Program-made: the position numbers and the translations under genes
Part shown: positions 10,065-45,405 of the stretch, piece by piece
Layout: each line of letters starts with the position of its first letter
Position numbering within the stretch: the first letter of the stretch is position 1
The notes under the pieces: generated by a model
What the model was told of the DNA's origin: nothing
Seen by the model: the letters and a program-made list of their open reading frames with translations, nothing else
Databases searched by the model: none
Origin: a phage
Sequence record: PZ754631.1
DNA: 51,438 nucleotides
Reading direction: 5' to 3' (one strand)

Positions 10065-10134
10065 TTACTGTACAATCATGATACACGATTCATAATCAAT
10101 TCTTTTAACAAAAAGTGCTATCAAGGAGAAAGAA

Positions 10135-20868: not shown

Positions 20869-20899
20869 TTTTGTGTCTCCTTAGTTGTTGTTGGTTGCA

Positions 20900-20943
20900 A
20901 CTATACACGATCTTGCGGTGGGCGTTTAGCAAAAAGTGCTATT
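20900..20943 (-). promoter_or_regulatory. early promoter cassette (minus) driving Cor-like lipoprotein
   Basis: on minus strand AATAGCACTTTTTGCTAAA, 19-bp spacer, TATAGT. Confidence 0.5.
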
Positions 20944-21038
20944 CTTGTTCTTTTTGTTATCCGGTGTTCTCAAATCTGCGGAGTCTTAAATTTAGCTCAA
21001 AAAGTGAACAACAATAGAGCGCAATACATACAGATAAA

Positions 21039-21120
21039 TATATACATACATATAAATCAATAAGTTAGTAGTATATATGTTTATATTTGTTTTTCTTGTT
21101 ATCTATGTTTTGTGTGATTT
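21039..21120 (+). repeat. ~75 bp AT-rich element with IHF-consensus core, copy 1
   Basis: exact 16-mer AAATCAATAAGTTAGT (21054-21069) matching WATCAANNNNTTR, followed by TATATATGT..TTATATTTGTTT..CTTGTT shared with copy 2. Confidence 0.6.
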
Positions 21121-21311
21121 TGTGTGTCTGGTGATTTTTTATGTGGTTGTGTATGTGTCAGTGTCTGTGTGTGTCTATATATCTATATCCGGCGCAAATT
21201 GAGGAACAAGAGAACAAAAAGACAACAAAGATATTTATCAATCACTTACATGTAAGTTTTGTTATCAAAGCTGGACAGAACGTTGCTAGAACAGAAAAAA
21301 CAAAACAACTA

Positions 21312-21339
21312 TTGACTAAACGCATCAAATAGCTACAAT
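21312..21339 (+). promoter_or_regulatory. sigma70-type promoter for recombination module
   Basis: TTGACT, 16-bp spacer, TACAAT; ATG about 30 nt downstream. Confidence 0.55.
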
Positions 21340-21368
21340 GCAGGCATACCAACCAACGAGGGCAAATC

Positions 21369-22430
21369 ATGAATAAGTTTATGGCGTACACCAGCGAAGA
21401 AATGAGTAACGAGCTTTATCACGATCCAGAAGCGTGGACGGCTGATTATGTTAGCGGCTCAAGCCTGGCAGAGATTTACAGCACATGCCCGGCAGCGTGG
21501 AAGTTCAAGCCGCGTGACGACAAGAGCAAGGCGCTAGTTTTTGGTACGCAGTCGCATACCAACTTTGAAAGCAGTGAGCTTTTCGAAAAAACCTATCGCC
21601 GTGCGCCAGCGCCAGAAGACTTTAAGGATCTGATAACCAGCCAAACGGCGCTTGCTGCAAAGCTAAAATCATTTGGCCTGAAAGGTACAACAGGAAAGAC
21701 TTACCCTGAACTTATAAAAATGTTGGTTGACTGCGGAGAAGACCTTAACGTTATGTGGTTAATCGACATGATCGCAGAAAGCCAGGCCATGGCCGATGGG
21801 GTTCAGTTAATCGAAGCTAAAGATTACGATGCGTGCGTGGCAATGCGCCAGGTTCTGGAATCAATACCGGAACATAACGCATGTATGAATAGCAAGACGG
21901 CACAACGTGAATTATCGTTGTTCGGTGAAATCAACGGCGTAAAAGTCAAAGTGCGATGCGATCACGTTGACGTAACAAAGAACGTCACCGCAACGCTGAT
22001 TGATGGTTACGATGAAAAAGGTCAGCCAATTTGCCGCGATATTATTTATCCAGAGGCCATTGTGATCACAGACTACAAAACCACAATGAGCGCGAATCCG
22101 GCTGAGTTTATGCGCCTGGCTTACAATCACGGCTATTATTTGAAAATGGCGTTGCAATGTGATTTATTCAGAAAAGCGTATCCAGAAGAAAAGCGACCTA
22201 TAGTTGTGCGACTGTTAGCGCAAGAGAAGAAAGAGCCTTATTTGCCGTTGGCTTTCCGCATGAACAGCGAGCAATTGAAGATCGGGCGCATTCAGTACAT
22301 GAGCGTAATTAACCAGTTTGCCATGTGCCAGCAACATAACGTTTGGCCTTCGTATTCAAACGGCGAGCCGGAGGTTTGCCTTGATACTCCTGATTGGGTG
22401 CGACGCCAGTTTAAGCAATATCTTATTTAA
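21369..22430 (+). CDS. RecB/Cas4-family (PD-(D/E)XK) exonuclease
   Basis: 353 aa; motifs CDHVD and ITDYKTT typical of RecB-like nuclease core; upstream of Erf and SSB. Confidence 0.65.
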   Translation: MNKFMAYTSEEMSNELYHDPEAWTADYVSGSSLAEIYSTCPAAWKFKPRDDKSKALVFGTQSHTNFESSELFEKTYRRAPAPEDFKDLITSQTALAAKLKSFGLKGTTGKTYPELIKMLVDCGEDLNVMWLIDMIAESQAMADGVQLIEAKDYDACVAMRQVLESIPEHNACMNSKTAQRELSLFGEINGVKVKVRCDHVDVTKNVTATLIDGYDEKGQPICRDIIYPEAIVITDYKTTMSANPAEFMRLAYNHGYYLKMALQCDLFRKAYPEEKRPIVVRLLAQEKKEPYLPLAFRMNSEQLKIGRIQYMSVINQFAMCQQHNVWPSYSNGEPEVCLDTPDWVRRQFKQYLI

Positions 22431-28075: not shown

Positions 28076-29008
28076 TTAGAGAATTGATTCAGGTTTGAAA
28101 ACCCTCCTCTCTATCCCTTGCCTGTAATTATCATTAATCGGCATCATAATTTCAAGTCCTCTTTCCTCGGCAGCAATGATCGCGTCACGATCTGTGCTCT
28201 TACAGACAACTCGCATTCTTCTGTTGCCTTTGTACCTGTAAGCTACAATCTCAATGTTAGTTGCATCAAAACAGGCCCAAACCTCCTGACCAGTTGCAAG
28301 ATGAATATGTTGCGCATCAATCCAGTCAACGCAAAGATAGATCGTCTTATCTGTACTTCCTGTTCTCACAACCGATCCGCGCGTGTAGTCCTTTGCGAGA
28401 AAAGACTGTTTACCTTCTTCATCAATGAAAAGCACATTGCACATTTCATCATCAACATCATCGGAATGTACCAGGTAACATGGGAGCGCGTGAATGTATC
28501 GACCATCTTTAACGCCGCAATCATAATGACCATCTTCAGGCGGGTATATTCCTTCATATGTGCTTAACGGCGTGCGATCAAATTTTAATGTTTTTGACAT
28601 AACGCGCTCGCAGCATTCATGGCTTGCCTGCTTCCCAAACGAATAACCAGAATCACGAGACACTCGCTTATTTGCCTTGATTCTATAGTCCTGCGGAACT
28701 TTTCCAAGAAAGCGGCCCAAAATATTGATCACTTCGCTGTAAGGTTCTCCGGTTAGCTTCATGATCCAACCAATTCCAGTATCATTACCGCACACGTTGC
28801 AGATCGCACCGCCATCGCCTTTTTTATCGCCAAGTTTATCTGTCCACCTGAATCGATCCTTTCCGCCGCAGTGGGGGCAAGATTGATGCTTGCCGTTAAA
28901 AACTTCATTTGGAAGACCGCAAATACTTTGTAGCGCCTCACGCCACAATCCTTGCATATATGGGAGAACATCTTCCTTTTGGTAAACCATAAAGTTTTCG
29001 TTGTTCAT
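28076..29008 (-). CDS. DNA primase-like protein (zinc-ribbon)
   Basis: N-terminal CPHCGG...CNVCG zinc ribbon; between HTH protein and tail fibre on leftward unit; start choice uncertain. Confidence 0.6.
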   Translation of the reverse strand: MNNENFMVYQKEDVLPYMQGLWREALQSICGLPNEVFNGKHQSCPHCGGKDRFRWTDKLGDKKGDGGAICNVCGNDTGIGWIMKLTGEPYSEVINILGRFLGKVPQDYRIKANKRVSRDSGYSFGKQASHECCERVMSKTLKFDRTPLSTYEGIYPPEDGHYDCGVKDGRYIHALPCYLVHSDDVDDEMCNVLFIDEEGKQSFLAKDYTRGSVVRTGSTDKTIYLCVDWIDAQHIHLATGQEVWACFDATNIEIVAYRYKGNRRMRVVCKSTDRDAIIAAEERGLEIMMPINDNYRQGIERRVFKPESIL

Positions 29009-29062
29009 ATGCACCTCAAACAAAAAGCCTGACAGATGATAACATCATGCCAGGCATTGTTT

Positions 29063-36582: not shown

Positions 36583-38166
36583 TTACCCCAGCAATGTTGG
36601 ATTTACGAAAACAACGCCATTAATCACGCAAATATAGTTTCTTTCCTCAAGCATCGGAAGCAGTTGCGTTTCCATGCGCTTCATTACGCCAGCCTGACCA
36701 ACAAACGGCTTAACTTTTCGTGCAGCCTCATATATGGCGCGAACATTCAAGATTCCCTTATTAGCCTTTCCGTGTCGAGTGATAATCTCGATTAGTTTAC
36801 CCATTTCAGCATCATCACCAGCGTAGCCAGAAGCGTTGGCGGCGCTAATGTATGTTTTGCTCAACTCGCTAAACATCAGCAGTGCTTCCTGAACGGTTTC
36901 AACCTCAATCTCTTTCGACTTTTGAGGGTATCCACCAGGATTAAACCAATTGCGGATAGTGTGCAAAACTGAAGCAATCCTGATCACCTGCTTATCCATT
37001 TTGCCAAGCGCACCGCGCAGCATTGTATGCGAATACTTTCCTCCATCAGCAAGGTGCGGCTCCATCTCCTGACGAGCCATGTTAAGAACTCGCATTGCTG
37101 ATTTGCTGATCTTAAGCTGGATGTTTGATTCACTCATGATGTTATGGATCAGCTTAAAATATTGACTTTTCAGTTCTCCATCAACAGGCTCATAAGTCGA
37201 ATCACCGTTATCATCAACAAACTTTCTACGGCCTAAAAATGATTCCTCACGCACAAGCAAATAACGCTCACTTACACCGATACCGCGCGATCCTGCATCC
37301 ATGATGGCATTGATTGTTTCATCCTGGGCAATTACCGCCATACAGCCAAGAGCTTTAAAACTCATATTGTTGTCAGCGTTTGCACGAGCTATAGAAACAT
37401 GACCATGATCCCATGCTTTCAGCACAAGTTCGCTGTTGGTTTTACGTTCGCTATTGGCATATGTCAGACCTAAAAGGCTGTTAATACTCGTTGCCTCGTC
37501 TGAAATCACAGCAAAGTTACCCTGGCGATTGTTGATTCTTGCAAGTCCTTCCGGCGTGGTGTCGGACACAGGGAAAACGATGTCACACATCTTTTCCAGC
37601 TTTTCTTCCAGATCTTCTTTCTCCTGGTACAGAGATTCCATATCAGCGCCGGAACGCTCGCTTTTCATCTCTTTTGCAAGACCTGCCAACTTTGCCTGAA
37701 TCTTTTTTCTTTCCTTCTTTCGCTGATCGTTAATTCTTTCCACTTCCGCAACCATTGGAGCAAGTGCCAGGCTGTTAACGGCAGATTTACCAGTTGAAGG
37801 AGGCTGGCTTGTGACAACATAAAGAGCGGTCGGCTGATCCGTTCCGTGATACTCAACCGTGAAGCGTCCAAGCATTGCAGCAGACACGCAGCCGATAAAA
37901 TGCATATATGCCGATGATTCAGGGAACTGAACTGATCGAGCAATGTTGCGCGCCAACTTTCCAACAACATCAACATCATTGCCAAGAGAAATTACAGGGT
38001 AGCGATCGTTTCCGTTATTAACATCATTAACCTCACCCCAAAAGCTGGACGATTGACGGTATCCGTTTGCCTGAATGGACACGCGCACCGGAGACAATCC
38101 TTGTGCATCAGCTAATTCGATAATTTGTTTTGGTGTTAGTTTATTGGTTTCAAACGAAAAATTCAT
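36583..38166 (-). CDS. P-loop NTPase (primase-associated/D5-like ATPase candidate)
   Basis: 527 aa from MNFSFETNK (RBS AAGGAG); Walker A-like PPSTGKS and Walker B-like FAVISDE; Lys/Glu coiled-coil insert; own promoter module. Confidence 0.6.
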   Translation of the reverse strand: MNFSFETNKLTPKQIIELADAQGLSPVRVSIQANGYRQSSSFWGEVNDVNNGNDRYPVISLGNDVDVVGKLARNIARSVQFPESSAYMHFIGCVSAAMLGRFTVEYHGTDQPTALYVVTSQPPSTGKSAVNSLALAPMVAEVERINDQRKKERKKIQAKLAGLAKEMKSERSGADMESLYQEKEDLEEKLEKMCDIVFPVSDTTPEGLARINNRQGNFAVISDEATSINSLLGLTYANSERKTNSELVLKAWDHGHVSIARANADNNMSFKALGCMAVIAQDETINAIMDAGSRGIGVSERYLLVREESFLGRRKFVDDNGDSTYEPVDGELKSQYFKLIHNIMSESNIQLKISKSAMRVLNMARQEMEPHLADGGKYSHTMLRGALGKMDKQVIRIASVLHTIRNWFNPGGYPQKSKEIEVETVQEALLMFSELSKTYISAANASGYAGDDAEMGKLIEIITRHGKANKGILNVRAIYEAARKVKPFVGQAGVMKRMETQLLPMLEERNYICVINGVVFVNPTLLG

Positions 38167-38193
38167 TGGTGATAACTCCTTTTTGATGCGGCA

Positions 38194-38239
38194 ATAATAC
38201 CGCACCAATGCTACCCGCATTTAACAAAAAATGCTATTT
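38194..38239 (-). promoter_or_regulatory. early promoter cassette (minus) driving P-loop ATPase gene
   Basis: minus strand AAATAGCATTTTTTGTTAAAT, ~19 bp, TATTAT. Confidence 0.45.
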
Positions 38240-38869: not shown

Positions 38870-38915
38870 ATTATGCCAGGCTTTTACACCTGGCTTTTAA
38901 CAAAAAGTGCTATTT
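38870..38915 (-). promoter_or_regulatory. early promoter cassette (minus)
   Basis: minus strand AAATAGCACTTTTTGTTAAAA, 19 bp hairpin (GCCAGG..CCTGGC), CATAAT. Confidence 0.5.
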
Positions 38916-39620
38916 TGCGTTTGCTTCAAAGACTGCGCGAGCAAAACCGCGCGGAGTGAGGGAGCGGATCATCTTTGTGCGAGATGATTTTCCGCCAGTT
39001 TTGGCCCAACCTGGATTATCCTTGTCGCCATCTTTAGGAATGATTGTTGCGCGCGGAGGAATAACAAATCCGTTTCCAGTCCAAAGGCATGTTTTCTTAA
39101 AGTACCGATCCCGCGCCGGAATAATATCAGGGAAGTCGGGATGCTTATCATCTTCCGGCAGATAGCCAGCATAATCGCACGGATGGAACGTATAATCAGG
39201 CTTTCGCCATAACGTTGACAACTTGCCAACCGGATTTTCGATCATGTAAGGAACACCGAAATAATCAGCTATATCAGCCGCGATCCTGCAAGTGTCGGCG
39301 GCCTCATCCTGGAATGATGGATTCTCAAGGCGCTTTTTGGCCCAATGGCGAGATCCGCTATTTGCAAGGTCGGTGCACGGCGGAAATGCCATAATAAAGT
39401 CAGGAATACCCCATTCCTCACAGCGCGCGCGGTGGTAAAATATTTCATCAATCCAGACGTTAACGTATTCGATATTCTCATGCTGTATGCGCACTGAGTG
39501 GTAATCACCGTGATCAGCATCATCGTAATTAAAGCAAATGCATTTATATCCAGCACCAGCCCAATCTTTAACGGCTTTACCAGATCCATCAAACAAAGAG
39601 AAAATTAAACCCTTATACAT
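38910..39620 (-). CDS. compact C5-cytosine methyltransferase-like protein
   Basis: motif I-like LFDGSG, motif IV-like FPPCTDLANSG (Cys present, Q replaced by T), motif VI-like ENPVG, motif IX-like LTPRGFARAV; 236 aa, no obvious target-recognition domain. Confidence 0.55.
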   Translation of the reverse strand: MYKGLIFSLFDGSGKAVKDWAGAGYKCICFNYDDADHGDYHSVRIQHENIEYVNVWIDEIFYHRARCEEWGIPDFIMAFPPCTDLANSGSRHWAKKRLENPSFQDEAADTCRIAADIADYFGVPYMIENPVGKLSTLWRKPDYTFHPCDYAGYLPEDDKHPDFPDIIPARDRYFKKTCLWTGNGFVIPPRATIIPKDGDKDNPGWAKTGGKSSRTKMIRSLTPRGFARAVFEANAK

Positions 39621-41113: not shown

Positions 41114-41386
41114 TTAATCATCTTCAAGCGGATCGTAATCATCAACCACAAAATCAAGCGGGGAATAGTTATCAACCTCAAAGTCAATACATTTTGCCTG
41201 TTCATCACAGTTAGATGTTTCAATCAAATATTCACCGTAATGATCTGGATCATCAAGCCTGGTAACAATGACGCGCGTCATGTGTCGCCCACATCCGTAA
41301 CGATCTGCAAGGTGATCTCGCTGTACGCTAAATCCGTTTTTATATGCGCGTTCAAGCGCGTTTCGTAATGCTTCGTGCTTAACCAT
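41114..41386 (-). CDS. hypothetical protein with acidic C-terminus
   Basis: 90 aa from MVKHEAL; C-terminal DFVVDDYDPLEDD. Confidence 0.5.
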   Translation of the reverse strand: MVKHEALRNALERAYKNGFSVQRDHLADRYGCGRHMTRVIVTRLDDPDHYGEYLIETSNCDEQAKCIDFEVDNYSPLDFVVDDYDPLEDD

Positions 41387-41618
41387 GTTTAACGATCTCC
41401 AGAACATCACAGGACTCGTTAATGAATTTAGCCATACGTTTATCATCACCAACAGGGATTAGCGCATTACACTCGCGTTTGCTACTGAATACCGTCACTT
41501 TATGAAACGATGCGAACGGCATCGACGGGAACTCGACTGTTTTCGTCAAGATCCGCAATCCAATCTTTTTGGCCCTTACCTGGGCCTCTGCAAGTTCAAA
41601 ATCCACTTCATCAATCAT
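41379..41618 (-). CDS. hypothetical protein
   Basis: 79 aa; ATGA coupling to upstream gene. Confidence 0.5.
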   Translation of the reverse strand: MIDEVDFELAEAQVRAKKIGLRILTKTVEFPSMPFASFHKVTVFSSKRECNALIPVGDDKRMAKFINESCDVLEIVKHG

Positions 41619-41887
41619 TTCTTGATCTCCTCAGCAATAAACTTCAGGACTTTGCGCAAAAACACTTCATTATTGATGGTCGCTGGCAATTCCTCTTTCA
41701 CTTCTTGCGGCAGATAGATATTGCCGTGCCAGGTTAAGCAATCGTAATTGATGCGATAAGAGCAAAGCCACTCGCAATCGTTATCCGCTTCCCAAATGCA
41801 GAGTTGCAGAACATCGCCAAAATTCTCAACAGTCAGGTCCAGACCATGACGCTTGGCGAAATTGAAAGTGGTTTTGCTGATGTTCAT
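41615..41887 (-). CDS. hypothetical protein (first gene of leftward early arm)
   Basis: 90 aa; RBS AGGAGAAAG; promoter module immediately upstream. Confidence 0.55.
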   Translation of the reverse strand: MNISKTTFNFAKRHGLDLTVENFGDVLQLCIWEADNDCEWLCSYRINYDCLTWHGNIYLPQEVKEELPATINNEVFLRKVLKFIAEEIKK

Positions 41888-41925
41888 TTGCTTTCTCCTG
41901 ATGGGTATCTCGTTTCGATGTGTCT

Positions 41926-41971
41926 AATGTACCCGATCAGGATGATTCAGTTTTAACAAAAAGTGCTATTT
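41926..41971 (-). promoter_or_regulatory. early promoter cassette (minus), first of leftward arm
   Basis: minus strand motif, 19 bp, TACATT; RBS and ATG of gene 41887. Confidence 0.5.
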
Positions 41972-41982
41972 CTCAACTGGCG

Positions 41983-42024
41983 ATTATTCCAACTATTCCA
42001 TTAATCAGGAATAACAAGAATAAC
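41983..42024. promoter_or_regulatory. operator-like nested inverted repeat in non-coding hub
   Basis: ATTATTCC-AAC-TATTCC-ATTAATCA-GGAATA-ACAA-GAATAAC; half-sites TATTCC/GGAATA duplicated around an ATTAAT centre. Confidence 0.4.
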
Positions 42025-42249
42025 TCATTCGCGATCACCTGGATTGTGAGACTTTGAGTTTGGTCAATTTTAATCAAGTGATTAACTTTTTGTGTGGAGG
42101 GGATAGAGAAACGCGGTCCTCTTGCATCCTTTCCGGCATTCCTGGCGCGCAACATGTTCATTATGTTTCCAGCCGTTCACGCAAATAAGCCTCCGCAGTT
42201 CTTCTACGTTTCATGCCGTCATGCACACAAAAGAAACAAAGTAAAATCT

Positions 42250-42325
42250 ATATAAATACACATTAAATCAATAAGTTAGTTATATATGTATTTATATTTG
42301 TTTCTTATTGTTCTTGTTGTGTGAT
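42250..42325 (+). repeat. ~75 bp AT-rich element with IHF-consensus core, copy 2
   Basis: same 16-mer at 42265-42280 and ~80% identity over flanks to copy 1, same orientation. Confidence 0.6.
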
Positions 42326-42569
42326 GGTTATTGGTATATGTTGCGATTTTTGTTTTGGTGGATATTGATTGTTTATTGTTCGATTTGGTTGGTGATCATG
42401 ATTGCTCATGGTCGCGTATGATTCTTGATGTATTTATGTATATATCCGCGAAAATTCGTGAACAGCCACACAGCCAAAAAACATGACGAGGATTCTTTTA
42501 AAATCATGCGCTTAAGTGTGAATTTTGTTTCCGCGCAATCTCCACACGTATAGCAAACAATTAGAACGC

Positions 42570-42599
42570 TTGACATAGACACGACGCGGTGGCAACATT
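42570..42599 (+). promoter_or_regulatory. candidate rightward early promoter (consensus -35)
   Basis: perfect TTGACA followed 17-18 bp later by weak AACATT; ~40 nt upstream of gene 42638. Confidence 0.35.
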
Positions 42600-42637
42600 G
42601 CAATCACCAACAAACAAGGCAAATAGGAGTTACACTC

Positions 42638-43096
42638 ATGACTATGACAAGTAAAGAATTTTGCGATATGTTGCGAGTCAATGCAGCCTCACTAGCTAAC
42701 GGTGATGTTAGCGAACTGCAAATCAAGGAGCTTGACTTGCAATGTAATATTGCGCCGGAAGACTTGAGGAAAATTAACGCCTCATACATCAGAACGATTA
42801 TGAATCGAACGCCGGAGGTGAAGGCTGTTGGCGCGGTGAAGGTTGAACGCGTTCGAGGTGATGCGGATATTCCTGATTGTTATCGCGTAACCATTAACAA
42901 GAATCCAAAGCGCCGCTTGCTGACAGATGAAGAATTGCCAAAACTTGAAAGCAAGTGGCGAGCAAAGTTTATTGCTCAACTGCTTAAAACACAGCCGCGA
43001 ATCAGCGATCTGGAAGGTGAGCGCCTGGAAGGTGCAGCAATCGCACTTGAGCGAATGAATGAAATGCTTAACGAGATGGTAAAGATGGAGGATTAA
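42638..43096 (+). CDS. hypothetical protein (first gene of rightward early arm)
   Basis: 152 aa; RBS AGGAG; downstream of consensus TTGACA box. Confidence 0.55.
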   Translation: MTMTSKEFCDMLRVNAASLANGDVSELQIKELDLQCNIAPEDLRKINASYIRTIMNRTPEVKAVGAVKVERVRGDADIPDCYRVTINKNPKRRLLTDEELPKLESKWRAKFIAQLLKTQPRISDLEGERLEGAAIALERMNEMLNEMVKMED

Positions 43097-43098
43097 TT

Positions 43099-43362
43099 AT
43101 GGTTATGATGAAAATTCGCAAAGCAACAGATGATTTCATTCGCAGTAATGCGGAAAGCGGTCGCCTGTATGTTGCATTCGTGGAACGCAAGAGAAAGCGC
43201 GGAAAGATCGTTGCGACTGAGCGGTTATTCAAGATGAAGCCGAGAAATGAATGCGAATGCAAAAAGGATTCCGGTTTTTACTTCGGATGCTGTTGCAGCA
43301 CGATAGAAAACGCGCGAATGCTTATAGATGAAGGAAAAGTATACTTCAATCCGGCAGAATAG
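43099..43362 (+). CDS. hypothetical Cys-rich protein
   Basis: 87 aa; CECKK...GCCCS cluster; stop TAG embedded in promoter motif. Confidence 0.5.
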   Translation: MVMMKIRKATDDFIRSNAESGRLYVAFVERKRKRGKIVATERLFKMKPRNECECKKDSGFYFGCCCSTIENARMLIDEGKVYFNPAE

Positions 43363-43402
43363 CACTTTTTGTTAAAACGCCAGGCGCAAAGCCTGGCATA
43401 AT
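43358..43402 (+). promoter_or_regulatory. early promoter cassette (stop codon embedded)
   Basis: AATAGCACTTTTTGTTAAAAC, 19 bp hairpin GCCAGG..CCTGGC, TG-n-CATAAT. Confidence 0.55.
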
Positions 43403-44456: not shown

Positions 44457-45362
44457 ATGTTAAAACTTGCTAACATTAAATTCCCGATCACTTTCCAATC
44501 TCGCGGCGTTGGTCACTTCATGTTTTCAGACGAAAATACATGCACTAAGTTTAACGAATACGGCAAGCCTGATGTTTCAACAATGGAGATTGAGCACTTC
44601 ATTGATGCGCATAACAGGCACTACAACTCACTCAAAGACTACGGCTATGCAATGCCAGGCTACACTTGCTTGCACTATAAGCCATACAGGGGCCAGGTGT
44701 TACCAGTTCGCTCACCAGAACGCGCAGAGATTCCGGCGGTCGAGATGAAAACCTGCGACTATAAAAAATTGTGGTGCTTAAGCGTGGATAACATCAAGTA
44801 TCCGATCGTATTCCACACTGTTGGTTACTCAACGATTCGTTATACGTCACCAGACAACGGCGTTTATAGCGATGGTCAGAAATCAGATTTTAAAGTTGAT
44901 TTCTTTGTTGATGCTCATAACAAATTCAATCCGCACAACGAAAAGGATAAAGTGTATTACGTGGAAGATATTACTAAACACTTGTTTGGAGAAACTCCAT
45001 TCGGCGGCGGGAAGACGTCTATTGCTCAGGCTATAGATAACGTTGCGCGACGTATTGGTGAGCAGATTCACAGTCAAACAATTAAGGCGTCCGGAGGCTG
45101 GCGTATTGATAAGAGCGGCATTGCCTGTCAAGAAATCGTAACGCAGGGCGCGATTGAAGACATGCCGCTTGGCGCCACGCTAAAAGGCGTCCAAATTGCG
45201 GATGGCACATGGTTTGAATTAACGGCTAAGCCAAAGACGATCGAGATTCATGATGACGTTGTTATTCTTCTTCTTCACTATGGCAGCGCGAAAAACCGGA
45301 CTGTTGCAGGTGAGATAAGCATCAAGCGCGGAACGATGGTTAAGTGGAACGTCAAAGTGTAA
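44457..45362 (+). CDS. hypothetical protein with internal tandem domain duplication
   Basis: 301 aa; N-terminal and central segments are homologous (NIKFPITF...FIDAHNRHYN vs NIKYPIVF...FVDAHNKFNP). Confidence 0.6.
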   Translation: MLKLANIKFPITFQSRGVGHFMFSDENTCTKFNEYGKPDVSTMEIEHFIDAHNRHYNSLKDYGYAMPGYTCLHYKPYRGQVLPVRSPERAEIPAVEMKTCDYKKLWCLSVDNIKYPIVFHTVGYSTIRYTSPDNGVYSDGQKSDFKVDFFVDAHNKFNPHNEKDKVYYVEDITKHLFGETPFGGGKTSIAQAIDNVARRIGEQIHSQTIKASGGWRIDKSGIACQEIVTQGAIEDMPLGATLKGVQIADGTWFELTAKPKTIEIHDDVVILLLHYGSAKNRTVAGEISIKRGTMVKWNVKV

Positions 45363-45405
45363 ATAGCACGAATTGTTAAAACTCAAATGTGGGGTCAGGT
45401 ATAAT
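45361..45405 (+). promoter_or_regulatory. early promoter cassette
   Basis: AAATAGCACGAATTGTTAAAAC, 18 bp, TATAAT. Confidence 0.5.

Follow-up and report, generated by a model that had tools for sequence, protein, structure and literature searches.

The window analysed here is the whole 51,438-nucleotide stretch of phage DNA in sequence record PZ754631.1, a complete T1-like genome whose first gene is terS (small terminase) and whose closest relative is Escherichia phage aaroes (Drexlerviridae, Tempevirinae, Hanrivervirus), with 94-95% identity. Our subject is the 750-nt gap at 41888-42637, flanked by the gene at 41615-41887, read leftward, and by that at 42638-43096, read rightward, which separates a leftward arm of small genes, Dcm, the DUF3987 helicase and others from a rightward arm of small genes, pnk, the terminase and the structural genes; the rightward neighbour belongs to the DUF7174 family and is the first gene of the rightward early operon. 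A sequence-only reading of this DNA had described the gap as the largest non-coding stretch of the genome, lying between divergent arms and carrying a nested inverted repeat with duplicated half-sites, an element like the binding site of integration host factor (IHF), a GT-skewed tract, a perfect TTGACA box and the first leftward promoter cassette, and all of these were recovered at the positions given in Table 1. By the annotation of aaroes (94% identical) it is the largest gap, the runner-up being the 500-nt gap between cor and recE, and its open reading frames (ORFs) bear no coding signature. The gap is composed of two units, a left third (41888 to about 42150) and the right two-thirds (about 42160-42637), and on balance the whole is probably a left-end region of the T1 type, combining a packaging start (pac), a host-type early promoter, a phage-type promoter and an AT-rich element with an IHF core.

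The left block (41888-42150) is 92-98% identical among relatives and, apart from the part formed by a 21-nt direct repeat (DR), has no second copy in the window. Pac recognition and cutting is the best-supported function of this block, by analogy with relatives whose ends have been located in the equivalent region, hereafter the hub. Restriction digests put the pac of phage TLS at the start of its record, with resemblance to the P22 pac deciding the exact base (PMC11447400), and the SU57 paper places the pac of T1-like phages in this untranslated region; the TLS record begins about 120 nt to the right of the first DR, and that of T1 likewise begins inside the hub. For MSK, PhageTerm gave a forward start at 36862, a position that follows the G-rich box directly, with the first DR about 150 nt to its left and the AT-rich core about 140 nt to its right, and the SU57 end, likewise from PhageTerm and an independently determined record boundary, falls 21 nt from the MSK position, both ends standing just to the right of the equivalent G-rich box. 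These ends supply two rulers, one from the DR end (cut 150-170 nt to its right) and one from the AT-rich core (cut 125-140 nt to its left), which transferred to the window give 42122-42142 and 42126-42141; we widened these to 42110-42160. At about 42150, three sequence families of close relatives stop aligning (e.g., pSf-1, which is 98% identical up to 42150, and the JakobBernoulli type). Directly to the left of this breakpoint lies GGGGATAGAGAAAC, a box present in hubs with different palindromes, and the motif GGGG..ATAG(A/T)GAAAC is retained in these hub types. In phages that carry the left block TerS is at least 97% identical, as against 70-82% where the left part of the hub is of another kind. 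The intervening genes, from the hub to terS, do not show this difference (96-100% identity in either group), which supports a link between left block and TerS; the TerS of T1 is only 50-56% identical though the GGAATA sub-motif is shared. It is because of the mapped ends in relatives, the breakpoint, the G-rich box and the TerS association that we place pac in the left block of this phage. The terminase would assemble there, on a block whose GGAATA array, TTAATCA palindrome and G-rich ATAGAGAAAC box may all be protein-binding repeats, and would make the first (pac) cut at about 42110-42160, after which headful packaging would proceed rightwards to terS and the structural genes. MSK and SU57 are themselves nearly identical until about 20 nt beyond the mapped start, after which they are unrelated, mirroring the breakpoint of the window's relatives near 42150; this break past the packaging start is noted tentatively, and the ends of the SU57 record may not be contiguous.

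The predicted phage-type promoter involves the DR at 41950-41972, an exact match to the TLS consensus aaATAGCACnnnTTGnTAAAA that stands 85 nt from the ATG at 41887. The DR of T1-like phages is characterized by a match to aaATAGCACnnnTTGnTAAAA, an intergenic position, orientation with transcription and a distance of about 76 nt upstream of a start codon, and this minus-strand copy belongs to the class. There are 16 copies in the genome at up to 5 mismatches (16-19 overall), each oriented with its gene arm, and 18 of 19 have a -10-like hexamer (such as CATAAT, TATAAT or TACATT) at an offset of 18-19 nt downstream, the background frequency of such hexamers being 0.021 per position; further examples are at 43356-43378 (plus strand), 38894-38916 (minus) and 45360-45382 (plus). 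No -35 hexamer occurs at normal spacing in these cassettes, and the DR itself occupies about -50 to -32. Because the -10 hexamer stands at a fixed offset without a -35, the DR would be the upstream element of a special promoter class, and the 21-nt repeat, whose function the TLS authors left as an open question (PMC11447400), can be taken to behave as a promoter element. The first leftward phage-type promoter would then consist of a DR replacing the -35 and a -10 hexamer 19 nt downstream, and our own scan found no leftward sigma-70 promoter in the gap other than this cassette. In T4 middle promoters an upstream box, the MotA box centred near -30, is used instead of a -35. The DR cassettes resemble these MotA-dependent promoters in having a good -10 fixed from an upstream box and no usual -35, and differ from them in that the DR spans about -50 to -32 and that no activator is known here. 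GC-rich inverted repeats between the DR and the -10, or bracketing the -10, were also seen in many cassettes (41896-41942; 43379-43397), one example being GCCAGGC-GCAAA-GCCTGGC. The minus-strand cassette at 10102-10124 runs counter to the late structural operon, with a terminator-like hairpin after it, an arrangement that could produce a short antisense RNA; its TLS counterpart is DR7 (PMC11447400). A literature search for transcription-start or transcriptome data on Drexlerviridae gave nothing usable.

The right two-thirds of the gap exist twice in the genome. Positions 42161-42640 are collinear with 20946-21372, upstream of recE, the 395 aligned columns being 75% identical (z = 13 relative to shuffles), and share with it, in order, the AT-rich repeat with the IHF core, the GT tract, a TATATCC-GCGAAAAT-GAACA box, a TTGAC(A/T) promoter and the leader ACCAAC-AAC-AGGGCAAAT; the promoter of the paralogue reads TTGACT-N17-TACAAT. 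The cor/recE gap (20869-21368) holds a DR, an IHF core at 21055, the GT tract and the box, without the block to the left of the inferred cut, and TLS has an equivalent arrangement in both its gaps. The IHF core of the hub, AATCAATAAGTTA at 42266-42278, matches WATCAANNNNTTR perfectly and has an A/T-rich tract on its 5' side, so that IHF binding is predicted; the core AATCAAT(A/T)(A/G)GTTAGT is kept in 15 distinct sequences, TLS and the window's second copy included, and of ten IHF-core matches genome-wide the two divergent gaps contain four, where 2.3 would be expected. The surrounding inverted repeat lies in DNA of 22-24% GC (42200-42350), and its predicted single-strand DNA fold, at -16.7 kcal/mol against -7.6 +/- 2.1 kcal/mol for shuffles (z -4.3), gives it a clear potential to form a hairpin or cruciform as single-stranded DNA. 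In the GT-rich tract, GC skew reaches +0.69 and AT skew -0.62 at 42300-42399. The (T/C)GTTnnn repeats and the TCCGCA box recur in distant hubs, and JakobBernoulli- and pSf-1-type variants have equivalents in tandem TGTTATC/TGTTCTC repeats. The box at 42440-42469 corresponds to CCCGCGAAAAATCGTGAACACGTGAACAGCG in TLS, to two copies of CGATAAC in other lineages (L097 and L098) and to three copies of CGATTAACA in T1; co-variation between a helix of DUF7174 and this CGTGAACA box, which held in four phages, broke in L097 and L098, and the pairing was discarded. The rightward promoter has the -35/-10 arrangement of sigma-70 with a spacer within 16-18 nt (TTGACA 6/6, 17 nt, extended TG, CAACAT) and is thus a predicted promoter, with positional equivalents having a near-consensus -35 in TLS (P01), T1, JakobBernoulli and MSK. 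Host-type promoters of this sort are very few in T1-like genomes; in TLS only three of the sigma-70 type were described, P01, P51 before recE and P57 before the regulator gene (PMC11447400). The right module, made of phased repeats, the AT-rich/IHF inverted repeat, the GT-rich tract, the CGTGAACA box, a sigma-70 promoter (TTGACA-17-TGgCAACAT) and a leader, would drive the rightward early operon, beginning with the DUF7174 gene, and its second copy may drive the recE operon. The sequence-only reading had called the whole gap a master early control region; its right half does fit an early promoter module and its promoters are divergent, but pac, the main documented role of the region in relatives, was not considered there.

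Several observations weigh against the combination of pac and promoters proposed here. The cut position is transferred from Braunvirinae, MSK being an UNVERIFIED record, and from the low-resolution mapping of TLS, and an older proposal, cited in PMC8421802, put the T1 pac at ATATA repeats, i.e., in the AT-rich part. The link between left block and TerS comes from only two lineage groups, and the GGAATA array does not follow TerS, since T1 has the array with 50% N-terminal TerS identity and phages with 82% N-terminal identity are without it. As to transcription, the rightward -10 is weak (CAACAT matches 3/6, with A2 and T6), and a standard promoter and terminator scan listed neither the rightward TTGACA promoter nor the DR promoter; its one promoter prediction fell within the right gene and it gave a single weak, terminator-like hairpin, and we used neither.

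Table 1. Features of the 41888-42637 gap and related elements elsewhere in the window (strand "." = not stranded)
Feature	Position	Strand	Remarks
Conserved non-coding block, likely pac recognition region	41888-42150	.	Conserved; no coding or RNA signal
5' leader of left gene, Shine-Dalgarno AGGAG 41895-41899, start codon at 41887	41888-41925	-	Read from sequence
10-nt inverted repeat bracketing -10 hexamer	41896-41942	.	90% complementary; 3' arm overlaps Shine-Dalgarno
-10-like hexamer TACATT of first leftward DR promoter	41926-41931	-	19 nt past DR 19-mer
T1-type DR GAAATAGCACTTTTTGTTAAAAC	41950-41972	-	About -50 to -32 of promoter
62-aa ORF (aaroes_22 equivalent)	41973-42161	-	Annotated in aaroes, longer in JakobBernoulli
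TATTCC/GGAATA array, two direct and two inverted half-sites, 9-nt phasing	41983-42024	.	Conserved
Perfect palindrome TTAATCA-AG-TGATTAA, also matching IHF core (match at 42072)	42070-42085	.	Arms invariant in relatives
G-rich box TGTGTGGAGGGGATAGAGAAAC, ending ...ATAGAGAAAC	42091-42112	+	Kept across hub types
Inferred first pac cut zone	42110-42160	.	Position transfer from MSK and SU57; homology breakpoint
Three 9-nt-phased (T/C)GTTnnn repeats (TGTTCAT, TGTTTCC, CGTTCAC), then box CAAATAAGCCTCCGCAG	42156-42198	+	Recur elsewhere
AT-rich imperfect inverted repeat, 40-nt arms, centred on IHF core	42224-42323	.	73% complementary; fold, composition
GT-rich, C-poor tract	42300-42440	+	Comparable tract in paralogous module and TLS
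Box ATATATCCGCGAAAATTCGTGAACAGCCAC (CGTGAACA box)	42440-42469	+	Its CGTGAAC inverted relative to copy 42174-42180
Predicted rightward host-type promoter TTGACA, 17 nt, TGg-CAACAT (extended -10)	42570-42598	+	TTGACA 42570-42575
Leader ...ACCAACAAACAAGGCAAAT, Shine-Dalgarno AGGAG 42625-42629, upstream of DUF7174 gene	42599-42637	+	Conserved in paralogue
Paralogue of hub right half, upstream of recE	20946-21372	+	75% identity, 395 columns
Primase	28076-29023	-	Homologous to P4 alpha primase domain
DUF3987 helicase	36583-38220	-	Predicted C-terminal winged-helix domain

The closest known counterpart is the left-end region of T1 and TLS (PMC11447400), which likewise lies between two divergent arms of small genes, with a DR beside the leftward gene, an AT-rich core, the CGTGAACA box and a sigma-70 promoter (P01 in TLS), and inside which both GenBank records start and the TLS pac was mapped. 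Most of its nucleotide sequence is unalignable with the window; TLS has two copies of AGACCGATTGGTCT in place of the GGAATA array, and T1, which does have the array, adds GTTGCA..TGCAAC palindromes and a second leftward DR but lacks a clear IHF core. Other packaging sites offer a further comparison. The pac of P1, the pacL/pacC/pacR sites of SPP1 and the cosB of lambda (with the IHF site I1) all combine repeated terminase-binding sites with a host bending protein, and the hub shares with them short repeats on both sides of the inferred cut, an IHF consensus nearby, GATC beside the repeats and packaging directed away from the site. It differs from them in its location, neither within nor beside terS but about 8.8 kb upstream, in the distance of about 135 nt between the inferred cut and the IHF core, and in the duplication of its AT-rich/IHF part, which a pac-only element would not need.

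The array between the first DR and the palindrome can also be read differently. Its half-sites (TATTCC at 41985 and 41994, GGAATA at 42008 and aGAATA at 42018, the last with G in most relatives) do not change across 11 Hanrivervirus sequences, in which the spacer and flanking bases do, and when the whole genome was shuffled 300 times with dinucleotides preserved, only 2 shuffles produced a cluster of three or more exact half-sites within 45 nt. T1, which is of another subfamily and has an otherwise unalignable hub, carries ATTATTCC-N9-GGAATA-N3-GGAATAA at the equivalent place, and a pattern search of IMG/VR gave 22 loci, 20 of them T1-like hubs of at least six lineages with differing spacers, in which the array lies 13-14 nt beyond the first leftward DR. 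The same slot is filled otherwise elsewhere, by the two tandem copies of AGACCGATTGGTCT in TLS, by five GTAATCA direct repeats in a Hanrivervirus-like group and by four TTGC-N8-GCAA palindromes in Braunvirinae. Because the half-sites are kept in at least six T1-like lineages, protein binding is likely, probably to a site of exchangeable specificity. It is conceivable, though doubtful, that the bound protein is a phage regulator and the array its operator or activator site at the leftward DR promoter, perhaps at the divergent pair, independently of packaging. This would agree with four 9-nt-phased half-sites held constant despite variable spacers and at a fixed distance from the first DR even in T1, with the further TATTCC that overlaps the DR end in T1-type hubs, with the lack of co-variation with TerS that is expected if another protein binds, and with the tandem palindrome of TLS, which looks like a specificity swap. 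However, the array lies at about -52 to -105 of the leftward promoter, upstream of the cassette and without overlap with the core promoter; no binder was found, and the ten genes flanking the hub have no match to a DNA-binding or helix-turn-helix (HTH) family in Pfam or PHROGs, matching only families without assigned function. The array occurs with all DUF7174 alleles, and DUF7174 is therefore not its partner, while the left neighbour gene is 96-97% identical in phages without the array. Comparing the presence or absence of neighbouring genes with hub class gave one weak lead only, a 79-aa gene (41379-41618), the only neighbour that co-occurs with the array and one that is absent from T1 and L014. 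The sequence-only reading had proposed an operator for one of the HTH proteins: the conservation on which that idea depended holds across Hanriverviruses, T1 and other lineages and binding is likely, but the array does not overlap the core promoter and no HTH protein could be tied to it.

Other candidate partners fared no better. A repressor operator of the lambdoid OR/OL type was rejected, as the array misses the -35 and -10 and the flanking genes are without an HTH family match; the gene of a Cro/C2-like regulator lies 12 kb from the array and is 100% identical in phages with different hub variants. TerS failed as a partner by co-variation, T1 sharing the array despite a distant TerS. An all-protein comparison of the window, T1 and TLS yielded no convincing candidate binder, and sequence searches of the PDB with the DUF3987 helicase and two small HTH-like proteins gave no meaningful match. 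In an unrelated 41-kb IMG/VR contig (L077, 1240-1330), three DnaA boxes (TTATCCACA-like) adjoin a ATTATTCC...GGAATAATTGGAATAA array.

A second possibility, which the sequence-only reading had raised for the gap and which we regard as speculative, is that replication starts in the right half (about 42156-42470), with the paralogue at 20.9-21.4 kb as a second origin or cis-acting partner, a role compatible with the pac and the promoters. A phage initiator might then, again with considerable doubt, bind the short repeats flanking the AT-rich/IHF unwinding element, with divergent transcription aiding the melting. The AT-rich inverted repeat with its conserved IHF core would suit such a role, and CGTGAAC inverted repeats flank the AT core at -91/+192 in the window and at -90/+180/+188 in TLS, the paper on which gives the origin as unknown (PMC11447400). 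Such inverted repeats are 8-9-mers that differ by lineage but keep fixed distances from the core. In T1, nine of the ten copies of the flanking repeats CGATTAACA/GTGTAACA are within the two gaps, and L097 and L098 have CGATAAC there. Of the features of an iteron origin such as P4 ori/crr, lambda ori or plasmid oriV, namely several initiator-binding repeats beside an AT-rich unwinding element, the window has the AT-rich element; of repeats it has only two clear CGTGAAC copies, plus the three loose 9-nt-phased GTT repeats, and the pattern is clearer in TLS and T1. Repeat type and replication proteins do not co-vary, as JakobBernoulli has replication proteins 97-100% identical despite different repeats. 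Since the duplicated unit includes a promoter and a leader, a transcriptional role alone can explain the paralogy equally well.

The comparison with the origin of P4 points in both directions. The tandem octamers of TLS (two copies of TGTTCACG) share 7 of 8 bases with the type-1 repeat of P4 ori (TGTTCACC, annotated in NC_001609), which is bound by the alpha primase-helicase; the window has one octamer-type copy each way, and its module, present twice at separate places, is reminiscent of P4 ori plus crr. The window's primase and the primase domain of P4 alpha are homologues (E 6e-13), and its DUF3987 helicase has a confidently predicted C-terminal winged helix. On the other hand, the window has only 2-3 degenerate copies compared with the 6 and 10 of P4, its helicase and primase are separate proteins, and no homologue of the P4 origin-binding domain is detectable; the DUF3987 protein has no sequence similarity to the P4 alpha helicase, and its winged-helix fold is generic, with the P4 origin-binding domain not among the top matches.

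It is unlikely, in our estimation, that all of these functions are present together, with a terminase that would recognize the block ending in GGGG..ATAGAGAAAC and cut at about 42110-42160, a GGAATA array acting as a switch that links packaging to leftward transcription, and a P4-like pair of origins, the two AT-rich/IHF modules, whose (C/T)GTTCAC-type repeats would be the target of a phage winged-helix protein (DUF7174 or else the C-terminus of the DUF3987 helicase). If true, the hub would hold two distinct machines, and in T1-like phages the sequence determinants of neither have ever been defined.

The weakest of the alternatives, that the gap includes a genuine gene (the 62-aa minus-strand ORF) or a structured non-coding RNA, is very improbable and already largely refuted. 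The frame is uninterrupted in each of the ten relatives compared, and two GenBank records annotate it, as aaroes_22 (62 aa; L001 3375-3563) and as the 108-aa bas07_0066 of JakobBernoulli (L002 3339-3665), and a small hairpin at 42113-42125 has changes on both sides of its stem in two relatives. In an alignment of eleven distinct sequences, however, the 32 variable columns of 41976-42150 are spread 11/11/10 across codon positions, whatever the frame, and in nine of ten relatives there are at least as many non-synonymous as synonymous codon differences; several relatives lack the stop codon, and in these the frame continues through the promoter cassette; no promoter was found that could transcribe the ORF leftward. 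The even codon-position split, the unconserved stop and the read-through of the cassette speak against a protein-coding gene, and both annotations are probably spurious. Nor is a structured RNA supported: Rfam gave no match at the gathering threshold and only chance-level ones at E up to 10, and the folding of 41888-42150 has no excess stability compared with shuffles on either strand (z -1.16 and -0.73). Because this block is conserved and yet shows neither a coding nor an RNA-fold signal, the constraint would be on the DNA itself.

Beyond the hub, no tRNAs were found in the window. About 20 GenBank records labelled "Campylobacter phage" (host C. jejuni; MG065636-MG065687) are up to 95% identical to the window genome; this host label looks doubtful, and contamination by a coliphage is a possible cause.

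The gross features of this region were already known for T1-like phages, namely that it is non-coding, bears the pac and contains 21-nt repeats. To the descriptions that we could find, the present analysis adds a GGAATA array conserved across genera, a fixed geometry between the DR and the -10 hexamer, a duplicated AT-rich/IHF promoter module, and an inferred cut that coincides with a recombination breakpoint. T1-like phages turn up commonly as laboratory contaminants, carry out generalised transduction and are candidates for therapy. In terms of sequence, neither their pac site nor their origin of replication nor the logic of their promoters has so far been defined; for the first of these, the likely cut is here narrowed to about 50 bp and the conserved boxes that adjoin it are named.

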